Origin: Patescibacteria group bacterium
GTDB taxonomy: Bacteria; Patescibacteriota; Patescibacteriia; 2-12-FULL-60-25
Length of the DNA stretch: 53,911 bases
Assembly (NCBI GenBank): GCA_038065635.1
Contig: JBBTQP010000067.1
Coordinates: 1 to 53,911 of the forward strand
Reading direction: 5' to 3'
In this document: positions 2,738-52,430 of the stretch, piece by piece
Position numbering within the stretch: position 1 is the stretch's first letter
Layout: every line of letters starts with the position of its first letter
Notes under the pieces: model-generated
What the model saw: the letters and a program-made list of their open reading frames with translations, nothing else
The model's database searches: none
Told to the model about the DNA's origin: nothing
Program-made: the position numbers and the translations under genes

Positions 2738-2748
2738 CGGAGATGATT

Positions 2749-21346: not shown

Positions 21347-21361
21347 AGACTCACAACCAAA

Positions 21362-24336: not shown

Positions 24337-24414
24337 ACGGTCGCGTTAAACGTTCAGCCGGTTACGGAACAGCAGTGGAATCTGATATCGAAGATCGCGA
24401 AGACGGGGGGTTAA
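24337..24414 (+). pseudogene. relic 3' end of a second EVE-domain gene
   Basis: Encodes ..NVQPVTEQQWNLISKIAKTGG* versus SVQPVTEQQWNLILKIAKTEV* at the end of the intact EVE gene (23709-23774). Most nucleotide differences are at synonymous third positions. Confidence 0.6.
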
Positions 24415-30182: not shown

Positions 30183-30198
30183 GAAAAAAGTCTATCAA

Positions 30199-30290
30199 GT
30201 CCATAAAGTCTGTAAAGTCCATAAAGACTAAAATATCAAATCTTATTTCCACGACCTTATGGACTTTATAGACTTTCGACTTTATGGACT
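30199..30290. repeat. word-repeat inverted repeat built from gtccataaag/ctttatggac units
   Basis: Left arm gtccataaagtctgtaaagtccataaagac and right arm ccttatggactttatagactttcgactttatggac, separated by a loop of about 26 nt. Confidence 0.8.
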
Positions 30291-33440: not shown

Positions 33441-33887
33441 CTACAAAACATCTACTACTACGCGCTCTTGCAACGAAAACATTCGTTTCTCCTGCTGCTT
33501 CGTGCGATGATCGAACCCGAACAGATGAAGCATCCCGTGAGCGACGAGACGAACCACTTCTTCTTTAAACGAAACTCCGCGTTCCGCAGACTGACGTTTT
33601 GTTGTTGTCGCTGAAATCAGAATGTCTCCCCACTCCTTTTTGCGATCCTTTCTCGGCCGCGCATCGGGGACTCTCGCGTCAGACGAAAACGACAAAACAT
33701 CGGTTGGCGCATCCTTTCCGAGGTATTTTTTATTCAGTTCACGAATCTCCTTATCGCTTAAAAAACAAACTGCAACATATCCCGTCGGACGGCGACGCGC
33801 CACGCTAAAAACACATTCCACCGTCCGTTGAATCAACGGACGGCTGATGGAGCTCGGCAATTTTCCATAATTGACCACGTCGATCAT
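33441..33887 (-). CDS. ybeY: rRNA maturation RNase YbeY
   Basis: VAHGMLHLFGFDH zinc motif, 148 aa. Confidence 0.85.
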   Translation of the reverse strand: MIDVVNYGKLPSSISRPLIQRTVECVFSVARRRPTGYVAVCFLSDKEIRELNKKYLGKDAPTDVLSFSSDARVPDARPRKDRKKEWGDILISATTTKRQSAERGVSFKEEVVRLVAHGMLHLFGFDHRTKQQEKRMFSLQERVVVDVL

Positions 33888-35209
33888 GGCGTTGGAGTCG
33901 GTTGTTCGGCGCTGGATGTTGTGGCGGCTTCCGTTTCGACAGGAACGGGTTGCGCGATCACGCCGCTAGTGGTTGCGGACGGCTCAAATGGCAGTGGAGC
34001 TCCGGTTTCGGGTACGCTCATCTTCGGTAAACCACTAAGCACAAGCGAATTCAGTATCATCGAGTAAGTCGTCCGATAATTGATGAATGTTTGTCCGTCG
34101 AGATCATAAGTCATAACAAACACACGATCGCCCCAAGGAATAAACGTGCTAAGAAGATCCGCGCCGATCACGCCTTCGTATCCTCCCTTCGAGCGATATT
34201 TCAAAACTTGCGTGGCTACTACGCTCGGATGAGTATCCAGATACCATTGCAGTATCGGTTTCTTTTCCGAATTATTCTCGATCGTGATCTTAAACAATTC
34301 CCCGTGTTTAGTGTCTATGGTTGCGCGCGAACCATCCGTACTATCCATCGCAATGCTCCAAGACGCTGGAATGCTCATAACCCAACCGATCGACGCGGTA
34401 ACTATTTTTACGAGAGACGAATCGAGAAGACGGACGGGGGCTTGTCCGGCGGGATTGTAGAGATGGAAAACTTCGTTGCCGTCCAAAAAACCGTCGCCGT
34501 CCGTATCCGGAGTCCGCGCGTCAGTGACGTACAACACCTCCTCAAGATCCGTTATGCCATCGGAATCCGAATCCAAACCGGCTGGAGGAAGGGTCGGGGC
34601 AGGAGGCAATTCCGGAGGAAGATTCGGAACGGTCGCGAACGTAGCATCGCTCGGCGAGGATTCTCCGGCGATGTTCAACGCGATCACGCGGTATGAGTAC
34701 GATTTTCCCGGCTCAACCGAGGCATCGAGAAACGACGTGCTGTTCGGCGGAAGATTCGTGACCGGAGTAAAACTCCCTGTCCCTTGATCGCGCTCGATAC
34801 GAAATCCAGACTCGTTGTCCGACTTGTCCGTCCAGTTCAAAATCACGCTTTGCGGGTTTGTGGATGTCGCCGCGGCATCAGTAGGAGCTGCCGGCGATTG
34901 CGGAGTCGGCGGCGGCGGCGTTTCGACGACTACTGGCGCGGGCTTTGGAAAAATCAAATCGCGATTGAAATAAACGAAACCTCCTGAAACCGCCAAAAGC
35001 AAAACAACGCCAACGATTACGGGCGCCATGATGCTTCGTTTTTTTGTTTCAGGCGACGGAGCTACGGGCGCCTCCACTTTTTTTTCTTCTATCCGCGTCT
35101 TCAAAGCGGCGCCGTAAAATTTGTCCGGTATTGTGTGGATCTCCGGTTCTTGTACGGATCCGGAAGTTGATCCTTGCGTTTGTATTTCTTCAGTCATAGG
35201 GCCTGTCAT
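33884..35209 (-). CDS. membrane-anchored protein with an FN3 domain, two TSP3-like calcium-binding repeats and a C-terminal uncharacterised domain
   Basis: TM helix IMAPVIVGVVLLLAVSGGFVYF. FN3: VILNWTDKSDNESGFRIERD...YSYRVIALN. DSDSDGITDLEE and DTDGDGFLDGNE. ATGA overlaps at both ends (35206-35209 and 33884-33887). Confidence 0.6.
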   Translation of the reverse strand: MTGPMTEEIQTQGSTSGSVQEPEIHTIPDKFYGAALKTRIEEKKVEAPVAPSPETKKRSIMAPVIVGVVLLLAVSGGFVYFNRDLIFPKPAPVVVETPPPPTPQSPAAPTDAAATSTNPQSVILNWTDKSDNESGFRIERDQGTGSFTPVTNLPPNSTSFLDASVEPGKSYSYRVIALNIAGESSPSDATFATVPNLPPELPPAPTLPPAGLDSDSDGITDLEEVLYVTDARTPDTDGDGFLDGNEVFHLYNPAGQAPVRLLDSSLVKIVTASIGWVMSIPASWSIAMDSTDGSRATIDTKHGELFKITIENNSEKKPILQWYLDTHPSVVATQVLKYRSKGGYEGVIGADLLSTFIPWGDRVFVMTYDLDGQTFINYRTTYSMILNSLVLSGLPKMSVPETGAPLPFEPSATTSGVIAQPVPVETEAATTSSAEQPTPTP

Positions 35210-36249
35210 TCTTTCAACGTGTCAACAAACATTCCGTAAAGAGCGCGGAAATCCACTGATGCGGCGTCGTTTACGCCGTATCGGACTATGAACGCTTCGG
35301 CTCCCGCAATTACGACGGTAACTAGACCGTCAGAGGATCGCCACGCGTTATATCCCGCGCTCGTAGTAAACGGAGTGAGTTCGCTTACGGGTAATGCCGA
35401 TTCGGACAACACCCAGTTCTCGAAGGTCAAATCGTCCGGTTTATCGGCAAGAGACAAAATTGAAATCAAGAAAAGCGCCGGTGTGTACGTGTTGATCGTT
35501 ATACCGACTTCCGTTTCAGCAGACGTCCAAGTTTCCGGAATGAGCGCGGAATTAACGCTGCCGATTTTTACAGTCTGAAAACGATCCGACGACGCGAGCT
35601 TGGTTTTAGCTATCGCCGGATCATAAAGACTCTTCGCCTCGCTGCCATCAGCGAAACCGTCGCCGTCGCTATCCGTGACGGATTTGTCTGTTCCGAATAT
35701 CGTCTCTTCCGCGTCCGTCAAACCGTCGCCGTCGCTATCCACGCCATTCGGAGGGACAACCGCTACTTCGGATGACTCGTTTGGCGCAGGAGTAGTTATT
35801 GAAACCGGCGGTGGAATTTCCGGTTGCGGCTCTGGAAGCGCTGGCGGTACTTCGACTATGGGCTCGGATTCTGCCGGAACTACTGCCTGTGCGGATGATG
35901 GAGCGACCGTCTTTTCAGTAGCTACTGACGACGAACGAACGAAAAAATACCAAATCGCTCCTCCGATAAGCCCAACGACCGCCAAGATCAAAACCAAAAG
36001 AATAATAATTTTTATTGGAGATCTACGCGACTCCTCCACGACCGGTCGCACCGTGGTTGTAGCAGGTGCTGATTTATCCAACTCCGCAAAAATATCCTCC
36101 GGCTCTTTTTTCCCGGTACCTGGTACCTTATCCACATTTGGGGAGACCTCCCCTAACCCCTCCTTCGTAAGGAGGGGGACGGGGGGAGTTAGAGGGGGTT
36201 TTGGCTGCGTCGGCTCTACAGGAAGATTGGATGGAGGCGTGTCGAACAT
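35206..36249 (-). CDS. membrane-anchored protein with two TSP3-like calcium-binding repeats; paralog of the downstream gene
   Basis: TM helix IKIIILLVLILAVVGLIGGAIWYFF. DSDGDGLTDAEE and DSDGDGFADGSE. The N-terminal coding region contains repeat C. Confidence 0.6.
   Translation of the reverse strand: MFDTPPSNLPVEPTQPKPPLTPPVPLLTKEGLGEVSPNVDKVPGTGKKEPEDIFAELDKSAPATTTVRPVVEESRRSPIKIIILLVLILAVVGLIGGAIWYFFVRSSSVATEKTVAPSSAQAVVPAESEPIVEVPPALPEPQPEIPPPVSITTPAPNESSEVAVVPPNGVDSDGDGLTDAEETIFGTDKSVTDSDGDGFADGSEAKSLYDPAIAKTKLASSDRFQTVKIGSVNSALIPETWTSAETEVGITINTYTPALFLISILSLADKPDDLTFENWVLSESALPVSELTPFTTSAGYNAWRSSDGLVTVVIAGAEAFIVRYGVNDAASVDFRALYGMFVDTLKE
36146..36200. repeat. family C repeat, short copy inside a coding region
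   Basis: acctcccctaacccctccttcgtaaggagggggacggggggagttagagggggtt, read in frame as PPLTPPVPLLTKEGLGEV. Confidence 0.85.
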
Positions 36250-36258
36250 ATGTGTGTG

Positions 36259-36507
36259 TTATTCAATTAAACCTTCGTTGAGCTCTTCGGTGGTTGGAAC
36301 CGGATCCCCCGCCTGCCAAGGTCGCTCAACTTGATATGAATCCAACGGCTTGGTATCGGACGTTGCCGCGGACTGTGAAGAAGATCCGCCAACAACGCGA
36401 GGCGCAATCTCTGTTTGGCGCTTCCTTAGCAATAATACACCGACAACCACTAAAGCGACCACGATGATAGCTAGAATAATTGAGTAGATTCGTGTACGAA
36501 GTTCCAT
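36259..36507 (-). CDS. small single-pass membrane protein
   Basis: 82-aa ATG ORF starting 6 nt after the giant gene's stop. TM helix IYSIILAIIVVALVVVGVLLL. Confidence 0.45.
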   Translation of the reverse strand: MELRTRIYSIILAIIVVALVVVGVLLLRKRQTEIAPRVVGGSSSQSAATSDTKPLDSYQVERPWQAGDPVPTTEELNEGLIE

Positions 36508-36512
36508 ATTTG

Positions 36513-39500
36513 TTAATAGTTAGCTTGAGACCATGCCTTCCATTGTTTGCCTTTTTGTTTGTAAGCCACGCATTTATAACCATAATCTTTCATTGCATTA
36601 CAATCTGCATCAGTACTACACGTCTTATACAATGTCGCTTCGTTGCCCGAACCAGGAATTGCGCAATACTTCCCTGTCCTCCAAAAACCATCGAATCCAT
36701 GTTCGTATACAGCCACACCTTCTGTATTTTCCGATAAAAAACGCCCCCACTTCAAGGCATTTCGCACGATCACTGATCCGTCTCCGGAATACAGATCAGC
36801 GATGTGCCAAAATTTACAATCTCCGCCGCAGTTTCCTCCCTTCAAGTCTTTCGCATTCACCTCGAGGATTTGTTTATCCGTCGAAATCACGGCCGTATAA
36901 CCTTTATCGATCAAATGCGATTTGAGAACGTTTGTTTTGTCATTATTTATTGGCGCTACGGACTTCCCGACTTGGTAATCCCAGAACATTCGCAACGGCT
37001 CTTGAGCGTATCCGAACGCCGAGTAACGGAAGTACGTTGTAAGTGGGCCTTCCTTATAAAAATCGCAGTTGTCCCACCATTCCTTGCCGCATGATTGAAT
37101 ACATTTTATTGCAGGCGCTCCACAAAATTCATTGTCATATTTACCATTCTTCATACAATCTTTCCCAGGATTACTCGGACTCTTATCAGAACAGTTCGGT
37201 ATAGAATTATTATTCACACATGAATCATTCTTTTCAGTACATTCTGCGTCTGAAATGCATTGCTTGTTTGTTTTATAACAATATCCATAATCTTGACAAA
37301 ACTGCTCAGTGCATTCTCCATCATTTAAACATTCTTTTCCGCTGTTTTTTCCGCTTTCACAAGTATTTCCGAATCCGCACTCTATCTGTGATTTTCCTGA
37401 AGCAAGGCACTTTGCGTTTCCTTCAACCGGACAGCTGTTCCAAGTGGCGCCATAAGATCCAGAATAACCTCCAACTTTTTCACCCGCATTATGCAAACAG
37501 AGCAGATACGCGTACGGTAATTGTGAAACGTCGAGATTCCCGCGCGTTGCGCTGCTCCATGTGATATCGCGCGCGCACTGTTGGGTGCTTGCCGGGCGAT
37601 TCGCGTAATTACAAGATTTTATATTCTCCACCTTGGATGTAGCTGTGTATGCGTATGCTTCCGGAATTACCAAGTGATTGTTAAATCCTCCGCTGATTCC
37701 GTTCGTCATCGTGGTCCATGGCTTTTCCCAGAGAACCGTGAAATACGCCTCGCCTTTGCCTGGACGTGGGAATAAATAAATCTTCCCGTCTTTTTTCTGA
37801 CTCACGACATCTAGATAATTATCAACTCCGAATGTAGGCGTTGTTAGCGGCCAATATCCACCTCGAATCCCTTCGTCAATCGTATACGCATACTGCCATC
37901 CTGGAGCTTTTGGATATCCGCAACTCGGTCGGTTCGGTTGGTTTCCGGTGCACGGATTGTCGTCGTATTTGTCGACTATCAACTTATATTGCGCACATTC
38001 CGAACGATTATTTAGTCCGTCGATCTGGAAATTGCCATTGTCATCGCTTGATGTTTGTTTCACCAAAACACCCTTATAGAACAACGAAACTTTTGCGAGT
38101 GGAACAACTTGGTTGTATACCGCATCAAGAAGCTGACCCTTAATAACGCCTGTACCGACATCATCGCTGCACTTTCCGCATCCGCCGAATGAACAGGATG
38201 AATTACACGAAACTATAGCCGGAGTATCGATGCCTTTTATTCCTACGCCGAGCGCCGGACCTTTTTCTCTGACGCATGTCCAAAAATCATTTGAGGAAGG
38301 AGGCGGTTTAGGATATGTAAAATATCCCTTACCACACGTTGTTCCCATGCACTGTTTCAGCATTATGTTTTCGTACTTCTTCAATTTCACATCGCCGCAT
38401 GTAACTGTCTGATTCAATTCCGTATCTAACGGATAAATTGCCGGATTGATTGTATTCAATGAAAAATCGTATCCGAGAGATTTGCATGTGATGTTATTTT
38501 CCGTTGTGGTGATACACGGAGTTTTTACGCACTGCGCGTTCAAAATGGAACATGCTTCCGGCGAAAGTCCGGTCGCTATTCCGCATAATTGTACGGTCAG
38601 ATCTTTCTTCTGCTTATCTTCGGATAATTCAACGTTTCCATCGCATTGCTCCGGCCCGTTCTTTTTCGCGTCTCCGCAATATCCCCCCGCGGTCGTGAGG
38701 AACTTGCACTGCGTACTGCAAGATGCGCAAGTTGAATTGTAATCCGCGGAGCATGTAACTTTTCCGTTCTGCGTCCCCGCGTCGCAATCCTCAACTCCCA
38801 TGAGCGGTTTTCCGTCGCCGCACACGTTCTTTTTGCAGGATGAAGTACACGCCTTGGTATCTCCGTTTCCTGATCCGTCATCGCACTCCTCAGACGGTTT
38901 GTCGATAATTCCATCGCCGCAGAAATTAAGAACCTCGCAGCCCGACCAGCTGGTATACGAACACTGGCTGGACCCGGACGTGTTGCACGTGCGAATGTGA
39001 GCCGTAGGATATTCCTGACATATGCCCGGTATTGTTGGCAGCGAACATTGGACATCGGATGAACATTTGCTCACGAAGTCCTGAACCGAACGGCAGGCCG
39101 TTTTTCCTCCGGATTCTTTCTCGCAGTCCACATTTTCCTTACACGTTTTAAATATCGTGGGATCGTGTTTTTCCGTTTCAAACGTCGGCGTCACGCACTG
39201 CTTTAGCGTTCCCGCGCATCGCTTGATCTTCGTGTTTTCACACGACGCGAGAGGATCCTTTTCTTCCGCCTTCGCGCATTTTCCATTCACTCCGCAATCC
39301 GCGTCGACCGCGCATGGTTCGTCCTGCGCGCTCCCCGCCTTACAAATCCCTTTGGTCGTCGTTTGCGTCTGTCCGTCGCATTTTTCCGGCGCGGTCACGA
39401 CAGTATCGCCGCAGTACGGAGCGATGCCCTTACAATCGAGACTGCAGCTGTTAGTGATTGTGCACGCCGCATTCGTGTCGCAATAATCTCCATTTCCGGT

Positions 39501-42500
39501 TCCTTGCAGGTTCGCCGGACCATTGTCACAGATTTCTCCGGGGGAAATTTGGCTGTCGCCGCAATATGCCGCGTATCCGTTGCATTTGATGTTGCAGTGC
39601 CCGTACGATCCGTTAAGGATTCCGTCGTCGCAAAGTTCACCGGAGGAAACGCACTTTCCGTCAGCGATGTTGCCGCCGTCACCCTTACACTCCGAATCAA
39701 CGAGACATCCGAGCGCGTTGCGAACTCCGCCGCTACACACCTTGTCGATCCTTCCGTTTCCGCACGCGACCGAAGCGTTGCACTGGCTTAAATTAACGTC
39801 GTCAAGAAACTCTTTGCATTCATTGCAAATCTGAAGTTTCAGTCCGTCCGGATTTATTGGATTTTTGTTATTTGGATCCTTGGTATCGCAGTCCGTCAAC
39901 TTCGTCTGTCCGATTTCGCAAACTTCATTTGCCGTGCATGATCCGGGTGGACTGCCAGGACAATCCTTGTCTGTAACACAAGGATTCTTGTCATTGGACC
40001 CACCGCTACACGCTTGTCCGATTTTCCCGTCTCCGCAAGTTCCGCTCTGTCCGATGGGTTGGTTCGTACAAACGTCTCTGTAGATAAAACGACCGCCTAC
40101 AAACCTGCAAGAGCCGGCGGTCACGGGATACTTGTTTTCAGGGCAGGAAACTATGTTTTTCGGATCAGGACACGGTCGGCAATCCTTATCTTCCTCGCAC
40201 AAGAATCCGAGAGTTTCGGAATTGGCGCACCGCTTGATCTCCGTCATGAGGGTTGGCGACCACCAAGCGGCGTTCTTCGTTGTCGGCGGCGGCACTTCAA
40301 ATTCGCTAGAGAGTTCGTATCTCTGTCCGCCATTCAGAGAGTGGTACTGATAGACGCGCGACGGAGAAATCCCGATTCGCGGACAAACGAATTTTCTCTC
40401 ATCCACGTTCCAGCAAGTCAGCGGTTCCGTTGAAGTCGTAGTTATGAAATCATTTCCTTTAACCGTCACGCCGGTGCAAGATTCGTCCGAAGAACAATCC
40501 TGATTGCCTCCGCACGGTGTTCCGAATTTGGAGCATTTTCCGCACGTAACGAATTCGTTCACCGGATCGGTTGGCTGCTTGCCTCCGACGGACTTGGAGA
40601 ACTCCGCATCCCAAGACGGCCAACGAGAGTTCGTGTAGCTGAAAAGGAATGTTCCTGCTAACAGTTTCGGATATGTCTCGTCTTTTGATTTAGCGGCTTC
40701 TATGACGCGCGACATCGACTGAAAATCCGCCACGCGCTCCGTGTCGCGAGATAATTTCAGCTTGTAGCTTCCGCAGTGGAAATCCGTCCCGAGCTTCAAG
40801 CAATCAAAGTCGCTCGAGCAGGTTACTGTATTTCCTTTGTCGTCAAAATGCGGCTCTGCCGGCTCGAAATTCGGATTGTTCCCCTTCTCGCACGCGTTGC
40901 CCACGCCGTCTTTCAAATTGATGTTGAATGCGAGAGTCTGCACCATTTGATCGTAAATTCCAACGGTGACTGGCGACGCATCTGGATTGCGCGAGATGAG
41001 ATAGATGTTCGAGTAAATCGACGTACCCTGTCCGTCCGTGTTTGCCGCGGCTACGTACGTGGTGTTCCCATCCTGCAAAGCGCGATATCCGTCAATCATT
41101 TTGGACTTCGGTTTGCCGCCGAAACCGCGCCACTTGTACCAGTCCTCCGGAGAATAATGAAGAGGATTCGATGCCACGCGTATACCGATTCCATCCTTTT
41201 TCAACGCCTTATTTTCATCTCCGTAAGTGAAAAGGTATTGCCGTAAAATTCCTTCTTTTTGATCCGTGGCTGTAAAAGGAACCGGATTGATCGTGAGTTT
41301 CGGCAAATCGTCTTCAATACCGGCCTCGCCTGCGTCACGACAATACATTGTTGAGAAGTTGTAGAAATACGGGCTCGTCTCAAAAATCGTTCCCTTCAAA
41401 CTTGAATCCTGACCGTTCCCTGTTGGCTTTTTGTCGCGGAACGGAGCTATCGGTCCCGGTCCTTCCAAGTTCGGCCACGGATTTTCACAAAGGGAGACTG
41501 TCACTGGCGCGCTTCCATGTATTGAGGATTCCGTGGTCGGCGGATTGCTTACAGTATCGGACGTTATCTTGAGCCATGCCATAACAAACGCGTTGCCGTT
41601 TTTATTCTCCGGCTGGATCGAAGCAGTAGTCTGCTTCGGCTGCGGATTCAAAACGGTCACGATGGTTTTTTCGCTCGTACTCCACGGAAGCCAGTCCCAC
41701 GCGTATTCTTTGACCGACACTATCGGAACTGCGGTGTTATTGTTTAACGCGATAGCTTGAGCCTGAAACGGATGAATGTCGCTTTGCCTTACGAACAAGA
41801 GCGGGTGCGCCTTTTCCGTTTTCGTGTCCACGCTCGTATCCGTCACCTGTATAAAATTAACAATACAAATTTTCTTTCCGGTAGTAAACGAGAAAGTGAG
41901 CGGCCCGCTTTCCGCTGACGCATCGTATTCAGCGACAACGCCTTTCGCTGTCTTTATACCATGCTTCTTCGATAGATCGGCGTTATCGGAAAACGGATCC
42001 GTCGTTGTGGAATTGTCGCCGAAAAACTTCACGCGGTATTTCGTATCCGGCTCAAGCGCGGAATCGAGTTTGAATTTATAGGATGCCGTGCCGATGGCAG
42101 AGGCGGGAACCCAAGACCCTGTAACCGATCCTTTGCACCAAACCGCGGCAATAGCAGGATCGCCCGTCCACCAAGCAACGATGCGATGCCAAACGCGCTC
42201 AAACCATCCTACGATTCCGTCATGCAAAGGACGAAAATTATCCGTGACGATCGTGGTTCCGTCCGGACACTTTCCGGTTCCGCTAACATCTTCCTTCGCG
42301 ATCTGTACGTTCGCCGAAACGCTGTCTCCAATCATCGGAGCATTAAACGTCGTGCTGATTTCCACATTCCTGCAAACTCCGGTTCCGCTCGGATATGAAG
42401 TCGCGATTCCAGGCCGGAGCGAACAGCATCCCTTGTCGGTCAATCCCATCGCTTTGCCCTGTGCGTTCGGCTTGCACGTCTTCTCGTCAGTAAACGCGCA

Positions 42501-45500
42501 CTGCAAACCGTATGTGGCCTCGCCTGTTTTTCCTTCCACTAACGATGAAATTTTCGATGACATTATCCCGTTCTCATCAGGATCCGCATCGCCTACGATG
42601 TACGCGAGTTGAACATTATCAACGAGCCCGTTCCCTTTCGCCGTTCCAACCGGAGGCACGGGCGCGGAGTTTTTCGGCGTGTTCTGTAAAGATTTGTCGC
42701 TGGAAGGAAGTCCGGCGTCGCACTGTTCGCCGATTCCAACGATACCGTCGCTGCAAAAACTCGGAGTTAGATATTTTACGGACGATCCTTCCAAGAAACA
42801 GGACGCATTACATCCGTCGCCTCCCATTTTATTTCCATCTTCGCAATCTTCGCCCGCATCAATAACTCCGTTTCCGCAAGTATTGGAGTTACCGATATGC
42901 AAACAGGTCTTTCCGTTACATCCTGCGGGGAAAGTCGGATCGGATACGCTTTGCTTCTCACAGGTTTCACCCGGTTCGAGAAGCGCATTTCCACATACTG
43001 AAGCTACGCTCGGAGATGAGCCGGTATGTAAACATTGGTTGGAACATCCGTCATTGCTGGTTAGATTTCCATCGTCGCAATCTTCACCGTCCGCAAGATC
43101 GCCATTTCCGCAGGTACTCTTGGCTGAAAGCGATCCTGTGTGACGGCAGAACGACGAGCAACCGCGATATTGCCGAGGCTCGCACGTACCACCGTTCTTT
43201 TCACAAGCCGCCTTATCCGACGGCTTTGTACAGAACGATCCGTCGGGCGTATTGGATTCGGCAGGAGCACCCTGGCATTGGGAGCCGAAATCGCAAGCTT
43301 CCCCAAAATCCAACTTTTTGCCGTCCTCGTCCCCATTTCCGCATGTTCCTGACGGAATCTGCGATACCGGCTTCCATAAACATGTATTCGGATCACACTG
43401 ACCAACATTACTCGGAACTCCCGGATCGCACTGCTCGCCGGATGTGGCGCCTGACGGGAGTACGGAACACGCGTCGCCGTAAGGAGTTACACCGACATTA
43501 TTCGAGATCTTACAGTACACTGCGTCCGTTGTTTCTATTATCCCATTTCCGCACACCGCGACTTTTCCGTACTGCGCCTGGCTTCCCATTGCGAGACAAA
43601 TGGCGCTGCATTGTGGCGGCAGTTGAGCCCCCGTATCAATCGATCCGAGTCCCACGAAATCCGCGACCTTCTTATCCGAAGTCGCCCAAGAAGCATCCTG
43701 CGTCTGAATAAGCGCTTGTCCAACCGCGCTGCACTCGTCGGCTTTTCCGAAAGGAGTGGCGACAAACAGCTGGCGCGCGTCGATCGCTGTCTCGTATTTT
43801 TCAATTGGCGCGACGTCAACCGACTCCGCTTTACAGTACGAATCCGGTCCCAGTTTTGTTCGGAACGTCCAAACGAATCCTTCCGGATCGTTCAGTCCTG
43901 TCATGAGCACGCCGTTCATTCCCTTGATGCCGCTGTCCGTTCCCCCTTTCAATAACACGCGATAATATTTTCCGGGTTGTAAAAGTAAATCCTTCTGGCC
44001 CTTCTGTTGGCCTGGCTTTGCCGGTTCGATGCTCAAAAACCGCTTGGACGTTTCCATTGTTTTCGGAACAGTCACGACTGTAATGGAATTCGCAGGAATC
44101 TCAAGCGGCGCTCCAAGCTCCGTCAAAACGCAATTCTCGTTGGTGCATGGACGCACTTCCACGTTTCCGGCTATGGACTTTGGATCAAGCTCCTGCGAGA
44201 ATCTCGCCCAAAGAAGAGCGTTGATGCAAGCGAGCTGACAACGTGGCGCGTAATCCTCGACTCTCGGCGGAATGAATTTTACATACAACTGCGCGATTCC
44301 CTTCACGTTATCGGGATTCGCGATTGCGTTCATGTTCACCGGGACGTTTCCGGTTTCCGTAATCGCGATGCCAGTCTGCTTACAGCTCACTTTCCCCTGT
44401 TCCACGTTAAACGGCGTATCGAATATCGCGCGTCCGTCGCCGTTCGCGTCGCCATGCAGCCATTCCCAATCGTATTTTTCGCATTGCAAAACCACGCAAG
44501 CGTCATCTTTCGAAATCGGAGACGCTAGATACGGAACCTTGCCGCCTGCTTCGTTCAATTCATAAGGATGCGGAGAAACGCTGACCGATCCGATTGCGCA
44601 CGGAGCGTTGGAACTTCTCGTCGTGAATTTGAAACAATATCCGATTCCTTTGCCGCAAGTGTCGCTTTCATCCATGTTGTCTCCGCCAACCCCAGCGCCT
44701 TTCACTCCGGTTAAAATTTGAATTAGATATGTGGTGCCTATTTCCAAGTCCGCTTTAGGCAGAATACGAACCAAGTCCTGATCAGGCGCCGCGACTTGAA
44801 GCAGTGGCGATCCTCCGGATTGCTCAACGTCCGTCGTGGTAGAACACGCTTCGTTCGTACATTTCTTCAATAGGAAATTCGTTTTAGTTACAGTCGTCGG
44901 ATCAAGATGCGCGGTAAAACGCGCGATAATAGCGGCATTAACGCAAACATTGTCCCCTCCGGTGCGAGAATTCCATGGCGACGGCGACGGAACCGGCGCC
45001 GGAATATTTTTCGGTGCGCACTCTTCAACCACGCGCGGCGCCACCGGAATGAGTCCCGTCGAAGACTGCCACGCGAACATGGCGGACTGCGTCACGACTC
45101 CGCAGGATTGTTCCTTTGGAACGCAGGTGCCGTTTCCGCAACACTGTTCGCTCGAGCTGCAAACGCCAGATTCTTCATTGCAATTTCTAACTTGAAAGTT
45201 CACGCCGTTGGAGAGAGTGCCTTGCGCGGAAAGCGTAACCGGTCCGGTCACGGCTCCGGCAGGAACCGTGGTCTTCACTTCACCGTTCGCCCATGCAGAA
45301 GAGATCGCGGCTTTATTATCATAAAATGAGACCGAACCAACGCTCGAACCGAAGCGCTCCCCTATTAGCGAGACGTCCGTTCCTATAGGTCCTACGCTCG
45401 GAACAACCGTGCAGATTCCCGGCTTTGCATTCGCGGATGTGATTGAAAAACTTACGGCATTTGATTCTGCATTATCGGAACGTATCAAGCGGACGGTGTA

Positions 45501-47591
45501 TGCGCCCGGTTGAATCTGTTGCTTGTTAAGAAATTCCTGCGGAACTTTCACTGTCACGTTGGTCTGCTTCCAGTACCCGGCCGAACAAGCCGAAGGAAAC
45601 GATGTGTCACCGAGCGCTTCATATCCGCTGGAAATCTGTTTGAAACGAACGGTACCGACGCTGGAGCCGAAATTTTTTCCGGTCAACGTAACGTACTCGC
45701 TTTTAGGACCTTCCGTAGGATCTACGCTTGCGATACTCGGAGGGCCTGCGACCGCTTTGTTCTGTACTAAAAAAGTAACGGGATTGCTGAATATTAAACC
45801 AACCTTCACTTTAATGGACTGTTTCCCATTTCCAACCACCGGAACGTTCGCCACGATCTCCGCATCCATCCAAGAAGAAAACGAGGTTATCGTAGATGGG
45901 CCGAAAACCACTTGAGCCGGCGACGTTCCAAATCCACCCCCGCTAATCTTGAACTGATCACCGACAAAACCGGAAGTCGGAGACAACCCGCAAATCCCCG
46001 GATATGACGAGTCGTCTACGACAAAGTCGGGAATTTGAGGACCGCGATTGTCGTTCGTCTGATCCGAAAGACTACTGGCGCCGTTGGTCAAACCGATTGG
46101 TCCGCTTGCCGCGCCATCAGGAACGGAAACGATAACTTGTGAAGAACTCCACACCGTAAATCCGTTTTGTATGCACGCTTGCGGAGGAGATGCGATCTTG
46201 TCGTCGCCGGCGCCTGGCCCGCCAAAAAAAGTCACGTTGCCGGAGTTGCCGAAATTTGCGCCGGTGATAGTCACGAAAGTTCCGGGCTTTCCGTTTAGAG
46301 GACTAACTGCAGTGATAGTCGGTTGTTCAACGCACACGTTATTCTGACAAACGCTGGAAGCGCACTGGCTGTTAGACGTACAGCTGCCGCCGGAACAAAC
46401 TCCGCAATATCCGGCTGTGTTTGGAGTTCCGCCGCAATCGATATCGGTCTCATCGCCATCTTTCACGCCATTAAAACACGATAGCGGACGAACCACGACG
46501 CTAATCGGAGAGCTGTTTGTTTCATGCGTATCAATATCAAAAGCAATGGCGCGCAATTCACGAACGGATTGCAGAGGAATACCGGCCGTATCCCATTGGA
46601 TTTCCGCATTATAAACAAGAGGAGAGCTTGAGGCGCTTGGTCCGGCTTGGTCGACAAAATTCCCGTTATCCGTAAACGAAACGTACGAAATTCCGCTGTC
46701 ATCCGTAGAATTTGCGCGAAGAGTAACGAGACTGTCGGCAGGGACGGCTTGTCCATCCAGAGGATCGAAAATTGAAACCGTTGGAGGCGTCGTGTCGATC
46801 AAATTTCCGGTATGAAATTTCGCAGTGCACGCTGGTGCGAATCCTCCGCATACGATGGATTGTCCCGTGTTGGAACGCAGACCGGAACCGATTGTTATCG
46901 TAAAATTACCGTCTCCGTCAAAACAAAACAGCTTATCGTTCGGAGTAGGACACGGATCAGCCGGAGTGAACAAAACGACCGCGCCGTTTACCGCAAACGT
47001 TCCGCCGACAGTAGACCCTCCGTCTTTCGTCACGACGATAGCGGAAACCGATTTGTCATCCACGGTTCGAGTGAAAAGCAATTTGACTTGAACGTTTCGA
47101 ATCGGAACCGCGCCTTGCGGAGAAATCGTCTTGACTTGAAAAGATTTCGACCCGCCCGCGCCTCCGAATCCGCCTGCCGCGCCGCTACCGCCTCCTCCGT
47201 CAACTCCTCCGCCGCCTTCTTGTGTCGCTTTCAAAAGACTATCAATCACAAACCGTGCGATCGCCCACGACGACAAAACTATAATTAGTCCGATGATGGC
47301 ATTGCGAATTATTCTTTTTGCGCTATTAACTTTATCCGGATCCCCTCCTGCGGTCATGTATACGAACCCTCCGTACAAAATCAAAACGACTATGATGATA
47401 CCGATCAAACCGAGCGCGACATTGATGATGTTGGTTGCGATTATTCGCGGATCAGTCGCCGAAAGCTTTGCGGTCTGACCAACGGCATTCAAACCCGTAT
47501 CAACTTGAGCCGAAACCGGAGATGCAAAAAACAAAGCTCCAGCTCCGAGGAGCATTGCAAGAAGTGAGAAGATGAGGAGAGCTTTGCGCAT
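36513..47591 (-). CDS. giant (3,692 aa) cysteine-rich surface protein: VirB2/TrbC-like pilin N-terminal module, Ig-like (SbsA/Big_5-type) domains, 4 IPT/TIG domains, two arrays of CGNG...C(D/E)DGN cysteine-rich repeats, and a carboxypeptidase-regulatory-like domain
   Basis: Uninterrupted 11,079-nt ORF under the standard code. Signal peptide MRKALLIFSLLAMLLGAGALFFASPVSA. IPT-like PTITAVSPLNGKPGTFVTITGANFG, plus three similar copies. Repeats such as CGNGDLADGEDCDDGNLTSNDGCSNQC and CGNGVIDAGEDCEDGNKMGGDGCNASC. Confidence 0.85.
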   Translation of the reverse strand: MRKALLIFSLLAMLLGAGALFFASPVSAQVDTGLNAVGQTAKLSATDPRIIATNIINVALGLIGIIIVVLILYGGFVYMTAGGDPDKVNSAKRIIRNAIIGLIIVLSSWAIARFVIDSLLKATQEGGGGVDGGGGSGAAGGFGGAGGSKSFQVKTISPQGAVPIRNVQVKLLFTRTVDDKSVSAIVVTKDGGSTVGGTFAVNGAVVLFTPADPCPTPNDKLFCFDGDGNFTITIGSGLRSNTGQSIVCGGFAPACTAKFHTGNLIDTTPPTVSIFDPLDGQAVPADSLVTLRANSTDDSGISYVSFTDNGNFVDQAGPSASSSPLVYNAEIQWDTAGIPLQSVRELRAIAFDIDTHETNSSPISVVVRPLSCFNGVKDGDETDIDCGGTPNTAGYCGVCSGGSCTSNSQCASSVCQNNVCVEQPTITAVSPLNGKPGTFVTITGANFGNSGNVTFFGGPGAGDDKIASPPQACIQNGFTVWSSSQVIVSVPDGAASGPIGLTNGASSLSDQTNDNRGPQIPDFVVDDSSYPGICGLSPTSGFVGDQFKISGGGFGTSPAQVVFGPSTITSFSSWMDAEIVANVPVVGNGKQSIKVKVGLIFSNPVTFLVQNKAVAGPPSIASVDPTEGPKSEYVTLTGKNFGSSVGTVRFKQISSGYEALGDTSFPSACSAGYWKQTNVTVKVPQEFLNKQQIQPGAYTVRLIRSDNAESNAVSFSITSANAKPGICTVVPSVGPIGTDVSLIGERFGSSVGSVSFYDNKAAISSAWANGEVKTTVPAGAVTGPVTLSAQGTLSNGVNFQVRNCNEESGVCSSSEQCCGNGTCVPKEQSCGVVTQSAMFAWQSSTGLIPVAPRVVEECAPKNIPAPVPSPSPWNSRTGGDNVCVNAAIIARFTAHLDPTTVTKTNFLLKKCTNEACSTTTDVEQSGGSPLLQVAAPDQDLVRILPKADLEIGTTYLIQILTGVKGAGVGGDNMDESDTCGKGIGYCFKFTTRSSNAPCAIGSVSVSPHPYELNEAGGKVPYLASPISKDDACVVLQCEKYDWEWLHGDANGDGRAIFDTPFNVEQGKVSCKQTGIAITETGNVPVNMNAIANPDNVKGIAQLYVKFIPPRVEDYAPRCQLACINALLWARFSQELDPKSIAGNVEVRPCTNENCVLTELGAPLEIPANSITVVTVPKTMETSKRFLSIEPAKPGQQKGQKDLLLQPGKYYRVLLKGGTDSGIKGMNGVLMTGLNDPEGFVWTFRTKLGPDSYCKAESVDVAPIEKYETAIDARQLFVATPFGKADECSAVGQALIQTQDASWATSDKKVADFVGLGSIDTGAQLPPQCSAICLAMGSQAQYGKVAVCGNGIIETTDAVYCKISNNVGVTPYGDACSVLPSGATSGEQCDPGVPSNVGQCDPNTCLWKPVSQIPSGTCGNGDEDGKKLDFGEACDFGSQCQGAPAESNTPDGSFCTKPSDKAACEKNGGTCEPRQYRGCSSFCRHTGSLSAKSTCGNGDLADGEDCDDGNLTSNDGCSNQCLHTGSSPSVASVCGNALLEPGETCEKQSVSDPTFPAGCNGKTCLHIGNSNTCGNGVIDAGEDCEDGNKMGGDGCNASCFLEGSSVKYLTPSFCSDGIVGIGEQCDAGLPSSDKSLQNTPKNSAPVPPVGTAKGNGLVDNVQLAYIVGDADPDENGIMSSKISSLVEGKTGEATYGLQCAFTDEKTCKPNAQGKAMGLTDKGCCSLRPGIATSYPSGTGVCRNVEISTTFNAPMIGDSVSANVQIAKEDVSGTGKCPDGTTIVTDNFRPLHDGIVGWFERVWHRIVAWWTGDPAIAAVWCKGSVTGSWVPASAIGTASYKFKLDSALEPDTKYRVKFFGDNSTTTDPFSDNADLSKKHGIKTAKGVVAEYDASAESGPLTFSFTTGKKICIVNFIQVTDTSVDTKTEKAHPLLFVRQSDIHPFQAQAIALNNNTAVPIVSVKEYAWDWLPWSTSEKTIVTVLNPQPKQTTASIQPENKNGNAFVMAWLKITSDTVSNPPTTESSIHGSAPVTVSLCENPWPNLEGPGPIAPFRDKKPTGNGQDSSLKGTIFETSPYFYNFSTMYCRDAGEAGIEDDLPKLTINPVPFTATDQKEGILRQYLFTYGDENKALKKDGIGIRVASNPLHYSPEDWYKWRGFGGKPKSKMIDGYRALQDGNTTYVAAANTDGQGTSIYSNIYLISRNPDASPVTVGIYDQMVQTLAFNINLKDGVGNACEKGNNPNFEPAEPHFDDKGNTVTCSSDFDCLKLGTDFHCGSYKLKLSRDTERVADFQSMSRVIEAAKSKDETYPKLLAGTFLFSYTNSRWPSWDAEFSKSVGGKQPTDPVNEFVTCGKCSKFGTPCGGNQDCSSDESCTGVTVKGNDFITTTSTEPLTCWNVDERKFVCPRIGISPSRVYQYHSLNGGQRYELSSEFEVPPPTTKNAAWWSPTLMTEIKRCANSETLGFLCEEDKDCRPCPDPKNIVSCPENKYPVTAGSCRFVGGRFIYRDVCTNQPIGQSGTCGDGKIGQACSGGSNDKNPCVTDKDCPGSPPGSCTANEVCEIGQTKLTDCDTKDPNNKNPINPDGLKLQICNECKEFLDDVNLSQCNASVACGNGRIDKVCSGGVRNALGCLVDSECKGDGGNIADGKCVSSGELCDDGILNGSYGHCNIKCNGYAAYCGDSQISPGEICDNGPANLQGTGNGDYCDTNAACTITNSCSLDCKGIAPYCGDTVVTAPEKCDGQTQTTTKGICKAGSAQDEPCAVDADCGVNGKCAKAEEKDPLASCENTKIKRCAGTLKQCVTPTFETEKHDPTIFKTCKENVDCEKESGGKTACRSVQDFVSKCSSDVQCSLPTIPGICQEYPTAHIRTCNTSGSSQCSYTSWSGCEVLNFCGDGIIDKPSEECDDGSGNGDTKACTSSCKKNVCGDGKPLMGVEDCDAGTQNGKVTCSADYNSTCASCSTQCKFLTTAGGYCGDAKKNGPEQCDGNVELSEDKQKKDLTVQLCGIATGLSPEACSILNAQCVKTPCITTTENNITCKSLGYDFSLNTINPAIYPLDTELNQTVTCGDVKLKKYENIMLKQCMGTTCGKGYFTYPKPPPSSNDFWTCVREKGPALGVGIKGIDTPAIVSCNSSCSFGGCGKCSDDVGTGVIKGQLLDAVYNQVVPLAKVSLFYKGVLVKQTSSDDNGNFQIDGLNNRSECAQYKLIVDKYDDNPCTGNQPNRPSCGYPKAPGWQYAYTIDEGIRGGYWPLTTPTFGVDNYLDVVSQKKDGKIYLFPRPGKGEAYFTVLWEKPWTTMTNGISGGFNNHLVIPEAYAYTATSKVENIKSCNYANRPASTQQCARDITWSSATRGNLDVSQLPYAYLLCLHNAGEKVGGYSGSYGATWNSCPVEGNAKCLASGKSQIECGFGNTCESGKNSGKECLNDGECTEQFCQDYGYCYKTNKQCISDAECTEKNDSCVNNNSIPNCSDKSPSNPGKDCMKNGKYDNEFCGAPAIKCIQSCGKEWWDNCDFYKEGPLTTYFRYSAFGYAQEPLRMFWDYQVGKSVAPINNDKTNVLKSHLIDKGYTAVISTDKQILEVNAKDLKGGNCGGDCKFWHIADLYSGDGSVIVRNALKWGRFLSENTEGVAVYEHGFDGFWRTGKYCAIPGSGNEATLYKTCSTDADCNAMKDYGYKCVAYKQKGKQWKAWSQANY
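47217..47591 (-). other. pilin-like N-terminal module of the giant protein (aa 1-125)
   Basis: IIATNIINVALGLIGIIIVVLILYGGFVYMTAGGDPDKVNSAKRIIRNAIIGLIIVLSSWAIARFVIDSLL: two hydrophobic helices around MTAGGxPxK, followed by a Gly-rich linker. Confidence 0.7.
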
Positions 47592-47634
47592 GTGACTTTA
47601 TAGACTTTATGGACTTGCGACTTTATGGACTTTG
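47592..47634. repeat. gactttatggac word repeat, one-armed copy
   Basis: gtgactttatagactttatggacttgcgactttatggactttg abuts the giant gene's ATG. Related to the right arm at 30255-30289. Confidence 0.8.
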
Positions 47635-47640
47635 CAGTTT

Positions 47641-49470
47641 TTACGGCTTGAACGAGCAATCCTGTCCCTTCGGGGAGTTATTGCAACAATTCGGCGCGCC
47701 TTTGCACACGGCAGACGTTGCCGGATTGAAACAATTCTGAAACGCGTCTTGAATGTCGGAGAGCAGGAACGGATTGTAATAATTGAGCTCCTCCTTCGGT
47801 TTCAATCCTGATGGTTGATACGGCCTATGTTTTATTATGACAGCCGCGCGATCCGCCACTTCGTTCGGCTTGATTGGCGTGTTATTCGCGGTCATAAGTT
47901 CCATGCCAACGCTGTACCAAAACGTATCCGGATTTGTTTCTGCCGGCCCAAGCGGTTCGATGCGAGCCGCCTCACTGGTCAAAGTCGACGATTGCAAAAG
48001 CGTGTCGAAGATCGCGGATACCGGTTCGTCCAAAGGTCGGTTCGACTGCCCCTGGCCTGGAGAAGCATCCGGTACGGTTTCAAGTATTTTCGGCGGTGTA
48101 AGTTTTACAACATTCGACGTTCCGAACGTCCAGACGTAACCATCTTGAGGCGATCCTTCGGAAATTTTATTCGCGTTCCCATCCAACGAATTGCCTACGA
48201 CATCAGTAATTCCGTCAAAACCCTGCGACGTAAATTGCGCCATTGGCGGCTGAGAAGAAAGAGTGGCGGCCTTGACCGCAACTTCAAGAGTCGCATCCGG
48301 CGGCAGGCAAAACACGTCCTTTCCGCACGAATTCACGCCGCACTTGTCAGTTGTGAGAAATTCTACGGTCTTATACTTGTTTGAAATTTTATACTCTCCA
48401 TCAAGCGGAGTTCCCAACCCACCGTTCGGACGGATGGACATATTGGTGAACCCCGAACCGTTTTGAAACAAACCTGTTGCGCCGGTCGGATCGACCGCCT
48501 CATTAAAAGTAACTTGAATTACGATGTTTCGAGGATACTTCCCTCCCGCATATGGTATTGCCGCCAAAACCTGCGGCGGTGTCGTATCCGTAAACGTTGA
48601 AACTTCAAACATCCACTCATATCCTTGCCCGTATGCCCCGCCGAACGCAGGACCTCCGTTTTGAAGCAAAATACCGGAATTTCCTCCTCTTAACTTCACG
48701 CTGTATTTCACGTTATTCGTCGGCGATCCTAGCAAATCCACAGGACGGATAACGAAAATTTTGCGATCCTGCGTGAACGAAACGCGCGCAGCCGATGAAG
48801 CGAGCGCCGTCTTTGGATCGTCCGATCGATAAAGTTGGATATTCGCGCTATTCAATCCGGTGACGGTTCCGCTCGTGGATTCGGTCCATCCTTCAATAAA
48901 GGAGGCGGGCTGAATCGCTTCCTTAAATGTGATGATTACCGGCGTGTTTCGAGGAACGTCCGTGGCATTACGTTCCGGAAGGTGATATTCGATAATCCCC
49001 GCGCCTAGCGACCCGGAAGAGCCGACAAGACCGATGCCGCCGGCACCGCTACCAAAAACTCCGCCACCGCCAGTCGCGTCTACGAGAGCGTTCAAAATAA
49101 ATGCGGTAATTGCCCAAGCCGATGCGATGATAACCAAACCGATGACCGCGTTTCGAATCGTCTTCTTCGCAGATTCAACTTTTTCAGGCGCGCCTCCGGC
49201 AGTCATCCATGTATAACCGGCATACAGCAACAACACTAAAAAAATGACTCCAAGAAACCCAAGAAAAATATTAATGATCCGTCCAATTATTTGGACGAGA
49301 TCCCCACCGCCAGCGACTCCGGCGGCGGCAGTGGTCTTTTGTACCGCATTAACCGCACCTGTCAGCTGCGCGCCTACGACAGTCGGAAAAGTAAAAATCG
49401 CCGCCAGCGTTAGCGCTTCGGACAAGATATTTCGAAGGGATCTTTTTTTCGTGCGCGTCTCTTTCTGCAT
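47641..49470 (-). CDS. pilin-headed surface protein (609 aa): VirB2/TrbC-like pilin module plus three Ig-like (SbsA/Big_5-type) domains and a Cys-rich C-terminus
   Basis: QIIGRIINIFLGFLGVIFLVLLLYAGYTWMTAGGAPEKVESAKKTIRNAVIGLVIIASAWAITAFILNALV. Ig-type starts LPERNATDVPRNTPVIITF, PPQVLAAIPYAGGKYPRNIVIQVTF and PPKILETVPDASPG. Tail CFNPATSAVCKGAPNCCNNSPKGQDC. Confidence 0.8.
   Translation of the reverse strand: MQKETRTKKRSLRNILSEALTLAAIFTFPTVVGAQLTGAVNAVQKTTAAAGVAGGGDLVQIIGRIINIFLGFLGVIFLVLLLYAGYTWMTAGGAPEKVESAKKTIRNAVIGLVIIASAWAITAFILNALVDATGGGGVFGSGAGGIGLVGSSGSLGAGIIEYHLPERNATDVPRNTPVIITFKEAIQPASFIEGWTESTSGTVTGLNSANIQLYRSDDPKTALASSAARVSFTQDRKIFVIRPVDLLGSPTNNVKYSVKLRGGNSGILLQNGGPAFGGAYGQGYEWMFEVSTFTDTTPPQVLAAIPYAGGKYPRNIVIQVTFNEAVDPTGATGLFQNGSGFTNMSIRPNGGLGTPLDGEYKISNKYKTVEFLTTDKCGVNSCGKDVFCLPPDATLEVAVKAATLSSQPPMAQFTSQGFDGITDVVGNSLDGNANKISEGSPQDGYVWTFGTSNVVKLTPPKILETVPDASPGQGQSNRPLDEPVSAIFDTLLQSSTLTSEAARIEPLGPAETNPDTFWYSVGMELMTANNTPIKPNEVADRAAVIIKHRPYQPSGLKPKEELNYYNPFLLSDIQDAFQNCFNPATSAVCKGAPNCCNNSPKGQDCSFKP
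49072..49470 (-). other. pilin-like N-terminal module of the 609-aa protein (aa 1-133)
   Basis: Aligns residue for residue with aa 50-125 of the giant protein (LYxG(F/Y)xxMTAGGxPxKVxSAKxxIRNAxIGLxI). Confidence 0.7.
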
Positions 49471-49503
49471 GGGAAGAAAAGCGGCCTAATTTAACCTTTG
49501 ATT

Positions 49504-49532
49504 ATTTTACTCTCCCAGCAGTCTTTGGACAA
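49504..49532 (-). promoter_or_regulatory. possible promoter TTGTCC-17 nt-TAAAAT for the pilin/giant operon, inside the yqeY 3' end
   Basis: Minus strand reads ttgtcc aaagactgctgggagag taaaat; the -10 lies about 33 nt upstream of the 49470 ATG. Confidence 0.3.
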
Positions 49533-51830: not shown

Positions 51831-52430
51831 TTATTGAATCGAATAAACCGGCTTTTCAAATACCTTCCAACGATCGAGCGGCCAACCGCGAAGCCATACG
51901 CGACCGACGATTGCGTCTTTTGTGACGGGACCGAAATATCTGGAATCAAGACTGGCGGTACGATTATCGCCCAGTACGAAATATTCGTTCGACTTTAGCG
52001 TTACGTCACGAGTTGTCGCTGTGACGAGCTGTTCGAGATACTCCTGCTCCGGCAAAGTAAAACCGTTCGGGTCGCTGTCGTTAAAAACCTTCACATTTCC
52101 GTTCGCGATCTCAACCGTTTCACCAGGAAGTCCAATAACGCGCTTGATAAAAAACTGACTCGGATCGTTCGGATAACGGAACACTACTATGTCTCCGCGT
52201 TCAGGCGTTCGAAAGCGATACGAAACTTCGTCGATTATCAAATACTCATGGTCAAAAAAATTCGGCTCCATGGAAGCCCCTTTCACGTAAAACGGCTGGA
52301 TCAGAAAATATCTGACGGGAATGATAATCGCGAGCGAAATAGCGGCGACCTGTATCAATTCAAAAACAAAATGGATCGCCTGTTTTTTACGGCTTACCTC
52401 GATATTGGGATCCTGTTTCCAAAATTTCAT
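51831..52430 (-). CDS. lepB: signal peptidase I
   Basis: GASMEPNF (Ser), RGDIVVF, IKRVIGLPGETV (Lys), VLGDNRTASLDSR. Confidence 0.9.
   Translation of the reverse strand: MKFWKQDPNIEVSRKKQAIHFVFELIQVAAISLAIIIPVRYFLIQPFYVKGASMEPNFFDHEYLIIDEVSYRFRTPERGDIVVFRYPNDPSQFFIKRVIGLPGETVEIANGNVKVFNDSDPNGFTLPEQEYLEQLVTATTRDVTLKSNEYFVLGDNRTASLDSRYFGPVTKDAIVGRVWLRGWPLDRWKVFEKPVYSIQ

Follow-up and report, generated by a model that had tools for sequence, protein, structure and literature searches.

What is a pilin module of the type IV secretion system (T4SS) family doing at the head of surface proteins many times its own size? The question is raised by a stretch of 53,911 nucleotides, hereafter the window (positions 1 to 53,911 of contig JBBTQP010000067.1, assembly GCA_038065635.1), from an Uhrbacteria-type (class ABY1) groundwater Patescibacterium. 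VirB2-family pilins are regarded as minimal subunits of ~100 aa. Here, three consecutive open reading frames (ORFs) on the minus strand encode a 609-aa protein (p609), a 3,692-aa protein (the giant) and an 82-aa protein, and the first two begin with such a module. The answer we favour, and to which we give about an even chance, is that p609 and the giant form constitutive, Sec-exported surface fibres that would be held in the membrane by their pilin-family hairpin, with no T4SS needed for export. The pair comprises the following features.

47641–49470, minus strand: p609, pilin-headed surface protein, with signal peptide (aa 1–35), hairpin (aa 58–129), Gly linker (aa 132–152), about four Ig-like domains (aa 157–575) and a Cys-rich tail.
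49075–49365, minus strand: mature pilin module of p609, aa 36–132 (PF18895 43.5 bits; NF045849 40.1 bits; AlphaFold2 (AF2) hairpin H58–90/H95–129).
36513–47591, minus strand: the giant, pilin-headed, 3,692 aa with 192 Cys (ORF, Pfam, ENA call).
47217–47507, minus strand: mature pilin module of the giant, aa 29–125 (PF18895 51.2 bits when scanned alone; AF2 hairpin pLDDT 83.6).
45192–46322, minus strand: four IPT/TIG modules of the giant, aa 424–800 (PF01833, four stretches, 66 bits; PDB sequence matches to CGTase domain D).
42792–43574, minus strand: first cysteine-rich acidic repeat array of the giant, aa ~1340–1600 (TIGR02232 49.4 bits; DUF4215 38.5 bits; Cys density).
40242–41960, minus strand: conserved payload domain of the giant, fold unassigned, aa ~1878–2450 (conservation; kept in the mini-giant of locus L036, see below).
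38592–40094, minus strand: second cysteine-rich array of the giant, aa ~2500–3000 (Cys density 10–13 per 100 aa; weak DUF4215 match).

An independent ENA gene call on a Hainich groundwater assembly (well H41) yielded identical lengths of 609 and 3,692 aa for the pair. An alternative call for p609 on the 409-kb contig that contains the window (protein P0004) begins at Met89 and results in 521 aa, thereby losing the signal peptide and helix 1; we prefer the 609-aa start because the ENA call and all orthologues agree with it. An assembly or frameshift artefact was considered and ruled out, as independent assemblies and orthologues show the same ORFs.

As the initial annotation had proposed, the two adjacent ORFs start alike: over 126 aa their N-termini share 43% identity (E 8e-19), both contain the motif around MTAGG that it had quoted, and the common pattern corresponds to PF18895 (T4SS_pilin). 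With a gathering score of 26.6 bits for this family, both proteins were above threshold in the Pfam scan, p609 with 43.5 bits (aa 57–125) and the giant with 42.7 bits (aa 52–115), and PF18895 matched 23 of 23 heads tested with a best E of 1e-13. PF04956 (TrbC/VirB2) gave a weak match in five of these 23 heads (best E 7.7e-4), and other transmembrane (TM) families also matched the heads weakly. For NF045849 (Mbov_0395/MMCAP2_0565 pilin-like conjugal transfer protein; NCBI cutoff 40 bits) p609 was borderline with 40.1 bits and the giant fell below with 31.1 bits. At E ≤ 1e-3, a search with a two-head profile returned 54,010 representative proteins from a set of 1.84 billion. The nearest stand-alone pilins were 131–135 aa long, displayed the same motif as the heads (YAG..WMTAGG..KV..AK..I.NA.IGL) and terminated at '..AT..', exactly where the Gly linker of the fusions starts; among the nearest small pilins, ~40% have PF18895 together with PF04956 in their annotation, and JGI calls some of them VirB2. 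The signal peptide, the two hydrophobic helices and the short basic loop of the family were all present in the sequences and the AF2 hairpins, and the remaining family feature, a small stand-alone protein ending after helix 2, was absent in these proteins of 609 and 3,692 aa. Judged by sequence, the heads are genuine PF18895 members.

Kinship of the heads to experimentally solved pilins is weakly indicated. The structural comparison with VirB2/TrbC pilins suggested in the initial annotation was uninformative: in Foldseek the isolated hairpin, too simple a fold for such a comparison, matched nothing significantly in the PDB (best E 3.5), and the solved pili 8dfu and 8exh turned up only among generic helical hairpins. 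Likewise, the head profile run against PDB sequences yielded no pilin and chance TM matches only, and the head had no tblastn match among 72,556 plasmids. Among the 150 best head-profile representatives, 147 could be classified, of which 49 have one amino-terminal head that continues into more than ~100 additional residues; almost all 49 are orthologues or fragments of the p609 and giant families, including 26 clusters of 2,435–4,410 aa. We also observed that 79 of the 147 retrieved top PF18895-like representatives (P0134–P0280, e.g. P0134, P0166, P0183, P0185) are 'poly-pilins' with several tandem hairpin modules per polypeptide, 2–9 as counted with the head hidden Markov model (HMM) and up to 17 matched stretches in the original profile search, an arrangement that suggests either polyprotein processing or multi-hairpin membrane proteins.

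The AF2 model of p609, based on a 48-sequence alignment, reached a mean pLDDT of 81 and exhibited, in this order, the signal-peptide helix, a short helix, the hairpin H58–90/H95–129, a disordered Gly-rich linker (aa 132–152) and a β-rich region (aa ~157–575, largely with pLDDT > 90), which we read as about four Ig-like domains. The head of the giant modelled alone resulted in the same hairpin (pLDDT 83.6). The Ala-Gln at the predicted signal-peptide cut is at least 90% conserved and the inter-helix loop is rich in Lys and Arg. Neither p609 nor the giant contains an LPXTG motif, an SLH domain or a C-terminal TM segment, leaving the hairpin as the sole visible anchor. Based on the positive-inside rule and on the Cys-rich, extracellular-type payload, we infer that the mature amino terminus lies outside, the loop in the cytoplasm and everything past helix 2 outside. 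In the proposed order of steps, the signal peptide would be cut after the conserved Ala, right before the conserved Gln, helix 1 would cross out-to-in, the short Lys/Arg-rich loop would reside in the cytoplasm, and helix 2 would cross back out as a signal-anchor, rendering all that follows the Gly-rich linker extracellular. An extracytoplasmic location of the payload is suggested by the 192 Cys and by the presence of TIG and Big domains.

Big_5 (PF13205) was above threshold in both p609 and the giant, and the giant additionally contains Big_7, four TIG modules, a second Big_5 and DUF4215/TIGR02232 cysteine-rich repeats above threshold. The four IPT/TIG modules had been placed at about nt 45192–46325 and were recovered at aa 424–800, nt 45192–46322. 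Of the remaining payload initially described for the giant, the further Ig-like modules and the cysteine-rich arrays were confirmed, whereas the carboxypeptidase-regulatory-like domain stayed sub-threshold (18.8–22.2 versus 32.3 bits). The 192 Cys are concentrated in two dense arrays. The giant exhibits no long or near-identical tandem DNA repeats, and neither protein has an RTX match in Pfam. PDB sequence searches (phmmer/hmmsearch) resulted in TIG-level matches only for the whole giant and in nothing for p609. The conserved mid-domain of the giant yielded no Pfam and no PDB match. The best-conserved part of the giant payload (aa ~2113–2432) recurs right behind ordinary signal peptides in ~1,000–1,340-aa proteins (P0124–P0131) of other bacteria, and on the basis of this occurrence the mid-domain appears to be a portable extracellular module.

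We assessed conservation separately for the two proteins, using the mid-region of the giant as the query in searches for its homologues. p609 has more than 450 homologues, and its gene is single-copy and highly conserved; the best 120 homologues, all from Uhrbacteria/Patescibacteria metagenome-assembled genomes, are 521–695 aa long and 45–93% identical to the window protein, with PF18895 and PF13205 occurring together in all but one of them. Giants form at least 26 clusters at 50% identity, with lengths mostly of ~3,300–3,850 aa across clusters and a full range of 2,435–4,410 aa. In four relatives, whose p609 is 47–69% identical, a pilin-headed giant of 3,552–3,711 aa follows immediately after p609 and is collinear with the window giant, one alignment segment spanning over 3,300 aa with 41–57% identity; the pair is thus retained down to 41% giant identity, where p609 still shows 47–50%. 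Within p609, conservation is highest in the hairpin, whose helices are 78% and 70% identical versus 57% for the Ig region (47 orthologues), and aa 51–150 of the giant are among its best-conserved stretches, with a conservation score of 0.66–0.68 versus ~0.5 overall. Between species, the heads are 55–69% identical. The hairpin is conserved beyond what a generic anchor needs.

For the genomic context, we searched one genome per species with the giant mid-domain, obtaining 31 loci in which the neighbours of the window were mapped by tblastn. The flanking genes were confirmed as YqeY/S21/HisRS/LepB on one side and YbeY/DgkA/FtsA/FtsZ on the other. The string HisRS-S21-YqeY-p609-giant-347aa-441aa-YbeY-DgkA-FtsA-FtsZ was complete in 22 of the 31 loci and consistent in eight others that are cut by contig ends, the order between yqeY and ybeY thus being conserved in different species. 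In the most distant locus (Athens0714_12, L036 7733–12433), a single 1,566-aa 'mini-giant' occupies the same slot and retains only the head and a domain matching aa 1878–2434 of the giant. For the closest loci (L006–L008), identities were 65–68% for p609, 63–65% for the giant mid-domain, 62–67% for FtsA, 53–59% for DgkA and 40–47% for YbeY. The sequence divergence of p609 and the giant appears housekeeping-like and not diversifying, and such slow divergence argues for a structural role over that of a host-range-variable adhesin. With a GC content of 46–53%, the locus lies inside the window range of 41–58%, in line with the native value (~53%) assigned to it initially. A mobile island was rejected on the grounds of native GC and conserved synteny; the view that the locus is resident and vertically kept within a housekeeping string was borne out, and vertical inheritance of the pair is what these sequence comparisons indicate. 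We consider the pilin-headed pair a candidate core surface structure of the lineage. Sequences that carry the cassette include OY970357.1 (1.08 Mb), JAVHLR010000001.1 (1.24 Mb) and JAJYXM010000016.1 (1.52 Mb). Ten species-representative records with the cassette (L011, L014, L017, L019, L020, L026, L028, L033–L035) are titled 'uncultured Gammaproteobacteria bacterium', an evident mislabel.

Adjoining the pair are the following features.

47592–47640, minus strand: spacer between p609 and the giant, with tandem 9-bp (C/T)ATAAAGTC repeats right before the ATG of the giant.
36259–36507, minus strand: 82-aa single-TM protein, 5 nt downstream of the giant.
35206–36249, minus strand: 347-aa single-pass membrane protein with a Pro-rich stalk, TSP3-type DxDxDG Ca-binding motifs and a C-terminal domain in common with the 441-aa protein.
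33884–35209, minus strand: 441-aa single-pass membrane protein with a Pro-rich stalk, fn3, a TSP3-type motif and the same C-terminal domain as the 347-aa protein; there is a 4-nt overlap between its start and the gene upstream.

The gap between the giant and the 82-aa ORF, originally given as 6 nt, measured 5 nt, and for the small protein tblastn found counterparts solely in closer relatives. The 347-aa and 441-aa proteins are paralogous and accompany the pilin-headed pair in nearly all loci. A scan for promoters and terminators over the locus detected sites no more frequently than in shuffled sequence. The 9-bp motif (C/T)ATAAAGTC stands in tandem at 47594–47640 on the minus strand, directly upstream of the giant start, and divergent arrays of it are located at 30185–30278 on both strands in the ftsZ-nrdR spacer; we counted eight matches at ≤ 2 mismatches versus 0 expected. 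The motif was absent from all related loci, and for this reason it may be a species-specific operator or iteron.

How could these elements act together? In the favoured reading, p609 would expose a ~450-aa rod of Ig-like domains and the giant a disulphide-rich chain of ~3,550 aa in which Ig, TIG and Cys-repeat modules are combined with one conserved domain. The hairpins would remain in the membrane as a specific assembly or anchoring module, packing together and possibly with small pilins, such that a short and a very long fibre would be held at the surface along with the two co-conserved downstream single-pass Ca-motif proteins, where they might serve in contact or as a coat. The strong conservation of the hairpin suggests specific helix–helix assembly rather than mere anchoring. 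Several points weigh against this reading. The conserved cytoplasmic loop and both helices would fit a partner machine such as a T4SS equally well, and Athens0714_12, the one cassette-related genome that was cross-checked, is listed as VirB4-positive (PMC12102498), so that a T4SS elsewhere in cassette genomes is possible. The support consists of sequence and predicted structure, and the best-conserved payload domain of the giant matches neither Pfam nor the PDB.

A possible but doubtful alternative, and the one that survives best, takes p609 and the giant as modular VirB2-type pilins: a T4SS encoded elsewhere would extract the heads and build them into a pilus of small PF18895 pilins, either at low stoichiometry or at its tip, displaying the Ig rod and the giant as adhesins. 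The heads are indistinguishable from stand-alone pilins and are the most conserved part of the proteins. In VirB2/TraA-type pilins the C-terminus lies on the outside of the pilus, as evidenced by the F-pilus structure and by C-terminal epitope display, so that a tethered C-terminal payload is topologically allowed. Furthermore, Patescibacterial T4SSs are reported to have no recognisable adhesin such as PrgB (PMC12102498), pilin arrays are essential in Southlakia (PMC10633639), type IV pili provide a precedent for the concept (PMC8179133), and Athens0714_12 does possess VirB4. The local gene content offers this alternative no support. Inspection of the ORFs agreed with the initial annotation that VirB4, VirB6, VirD4, relaxase and pilus ATPase are absent from the 54-kb window, and none was found within 10 kb past either end; T4SS genes (VirB4, VirB6, VirB3) were likewise absent from the flanks of more than 30 orthologous loci. 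With the head HMM, the window and loci L001–L005 yielded no additional pilin module, and the small-pilin search matched none on cassette-bearing contigs. Small pilins and type IV pilus genes were likewise missing from the 10 kb past either end and from the flanks of the related loci. The T4SS survey lists Uhrbacteria genomes both with and without VirB4, several of ~1 Mb being VirB4-negative (PMC12102498); the latter may or may not carry the cassette. A 3,550-aa payload is too large for every subunit of a pilus, and T4SS-linked pilin arrays are highly divergent, with a mean identity of 25% (PMC12102498) versus the 55–69% of the heads between species. The small pilins nearest to the heads sit in tandem arrays of six and nine genes (L046 9535–12346; L047 7496–12200), both preceded by genes for NTP_transferase and SBP_bac_1; VirB4 was not found within 10 kb of either array.

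A membrane-anchored, S-layer-like coat is an unlikely explanation, in which p609 would form a lattice via its Ig-like domains, anchored by the hairpin as in TM-anchored archaeal S-layers, and the giant would be a spacer or accessory. The best PDB matches of the p609 model in Foldseek were indeed the S-layer proteins SbsC (4uj6, 4uic; E 3e-8 to 1e-7) and B. anthracis Sap, the Ig domain of Big_5 is of the SbsA type, and a housekeeping-like, single-copy and highly conserved gene is consistent with a coat. The likeness, however, is at the level of a generic Ig string (TM 0.14–0.16), as titin and cadherin Ig strings score nearly as well, and lattice contacts and abundance are purely conjectural. 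A coat also leaves unexplained why a pilin-family hairpin would be needed, and why a second, giant protein carries a paralogous head.

By analogy with pilin maturation, the head might instead be a leader and transient anchor, with the payload cut near the Gly linker and then released or passed to the wall, a scenario we judge very unlikely. P-type pilins are C-terminally trimmed by a LepB-like peptidase (RP4 TraF, acting on TrbC), and C-terminal trimming of TrbC and VirB2 serves as the analogy here. Stand-alone pilins have their C-terminus at precisely the point where the head gives way to the payload. A signal peptidase I (LepB, S26) gene is located at 51831–52430 on the minus strand, four genes upstream of p609, and is kept at that position in all examined loci reaching far enough upstream (L001–L004, L036); this linkage could be a coincidence or a functional tie to pilin processing, and LepB may be a plain housekeeping enzyme. 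We detected no conserved cleavage motif beyond the Gly runs, and nothing else, be it LPXTG, SLH or a C-terminal TM segment, would tether the payload after a cut. Finally, that the amino terminus is a generic signal-anchor matching PF18895 through hydrophobic composition alone would agree with the lack of a pilin in the Foldseek and PDB profile searches and with the weak matches of other TM families, but is hardly credible considering that all 23 heads match at up to E 1e-13 with both window proteins above the gathering threshold, that the specific motif including the polar loop is common with ~130-aa pilins, ~40% of which match PF04956, that five of the 23 heads themselves match PF04956 weakly, and that the head is more conserved than the ectodomain.

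Elsewhere in the window, the region ~19700–21400 represents the GC maximum (58.5%) and contains long overlapping ORFs on both strands, for which no Pfam match was obtained; the trypsin-like protein downstream of it probably has its true start much further in, at MMNIRIK. On the minus strand, 24411–26591 encodes a highly acidic, Glu/Ala/Lys-rich protein of 726 aa with a long internal duplication (...PAGVPIEDVQEKPAETPVEAVEAEKSTEVKPEAAAEKIPSD... twice), again devoid of a Pfam match.

The initial annotation had regarded the pilin-headed architecture as uncharacterised. This holds insofar as our full-text literature search found no paper describing a pilin head with a giant payload; the T4SS survey (PMC12102498), a T4SS review (PMC12857230) and the Southlakia genetics (PMC10633639) deal with small pilins and pilin arrays only. 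The architecture is not rare: hundreds of copies are present in public databases, where automatic annotation labels them 'pilin', 'Ig-like domain-containing protein' or 'MMCAP2_0565 family pilin-like conjugal transfer protein'. The sequences are thus already in databases, and the architecture is undescribed in the searchable literature. With a conserved, single-copy pair whose pilin module carries very large extracellular payloads, the 'modular pilin' principle of type IV pili would reach the T4SS pilin family as well, and there would be concrete candidates for the proteins behind the surface fibres or coat observed on ultra-small groundwater bacteria. We know of no pilus-borne adhesin in Gram-positive-type T4SSs, including the essential Patescibacterial ones. 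Should the pair be the first 'modular VirB2-type pilins', which we put forward only tentatively, an ABY1 T4SS-family pilus or a membrane pilin platform of small pilins would be decorated or capped by the 450-aa Ig rod and the 3,550-aa fibre, and these would constitute the host-contact adhesin missed by Patescibacterial T4SS surveys. Being fixed near ftsA/ftsZ and evolving in a housekeeping-like manner, the pair is a good marker and a good target for antibodies, proteomics and cryo-electron tomography.

Comparing the pair with known systems, the closest relatives of the heads are the Patescibacterial VirB2-like pilins (PF18895, NF045849; arrays in PMC12102498, PMC10633639), which have the same signal peptide, two hydrophobic helices, short basic loop and motif, and whose arrays resemble the p609–giant pair in being tandems of divergent heads (here two, 43–47% identical to each other). 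Known PF18895 pilins, however, are 110–180 aa long and end after helix 2, whereas here 480 and 3,570 residues more follow; array pilins are also far less conserved between species than the p609 and giant heads, and, unlike those of known T4SS pilins, the p609 and giant genes are fixed in a housekeeping string and not beside virB4. The type IV modular minor pilins PilB and PilC of S. sanguinis (PMC8179133, PMC9934059) embody the same concept, a pilin module with a displayed C-terminal adhesive or lectin module, but with an unrelated fold and machinery, a class III signal peptide and a single N-terminal helix in place of the Sec/LepB-type hairpin found here. In agreement with this distinction, a prepilin-peptidase motif (G|F/M-x-x-x-E, G/FTLIE-type) was found in neither p609 nor the giant, and their payload is up to ~10 times larger than that of type IV modular pilins. 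The p609 ectodomain is most similar to the Big_5-type Ig strings of S-layer proteins (Geobacillus SbsC and SbsA, B. anthracis Sap), its best structural matches; these anchor via SLH or SCWP-binding domains without a pilin hairpin, and a p609 lattice is conjectural. Giant fibrous adhesins (Bap/RTX-type, LPXTG Ig-repeat) are, like the giant, multi-kilodalton Ig/TIG/Cys-rich chains, in its case predicted to be extracellular. In contrast to them, the giant lacks a type I secretion system signal, an LPXTG motif and near-identical tandem repeats and has an N-terminal anchor, and it is further set apart by a collinear domain order and a stable length across species.

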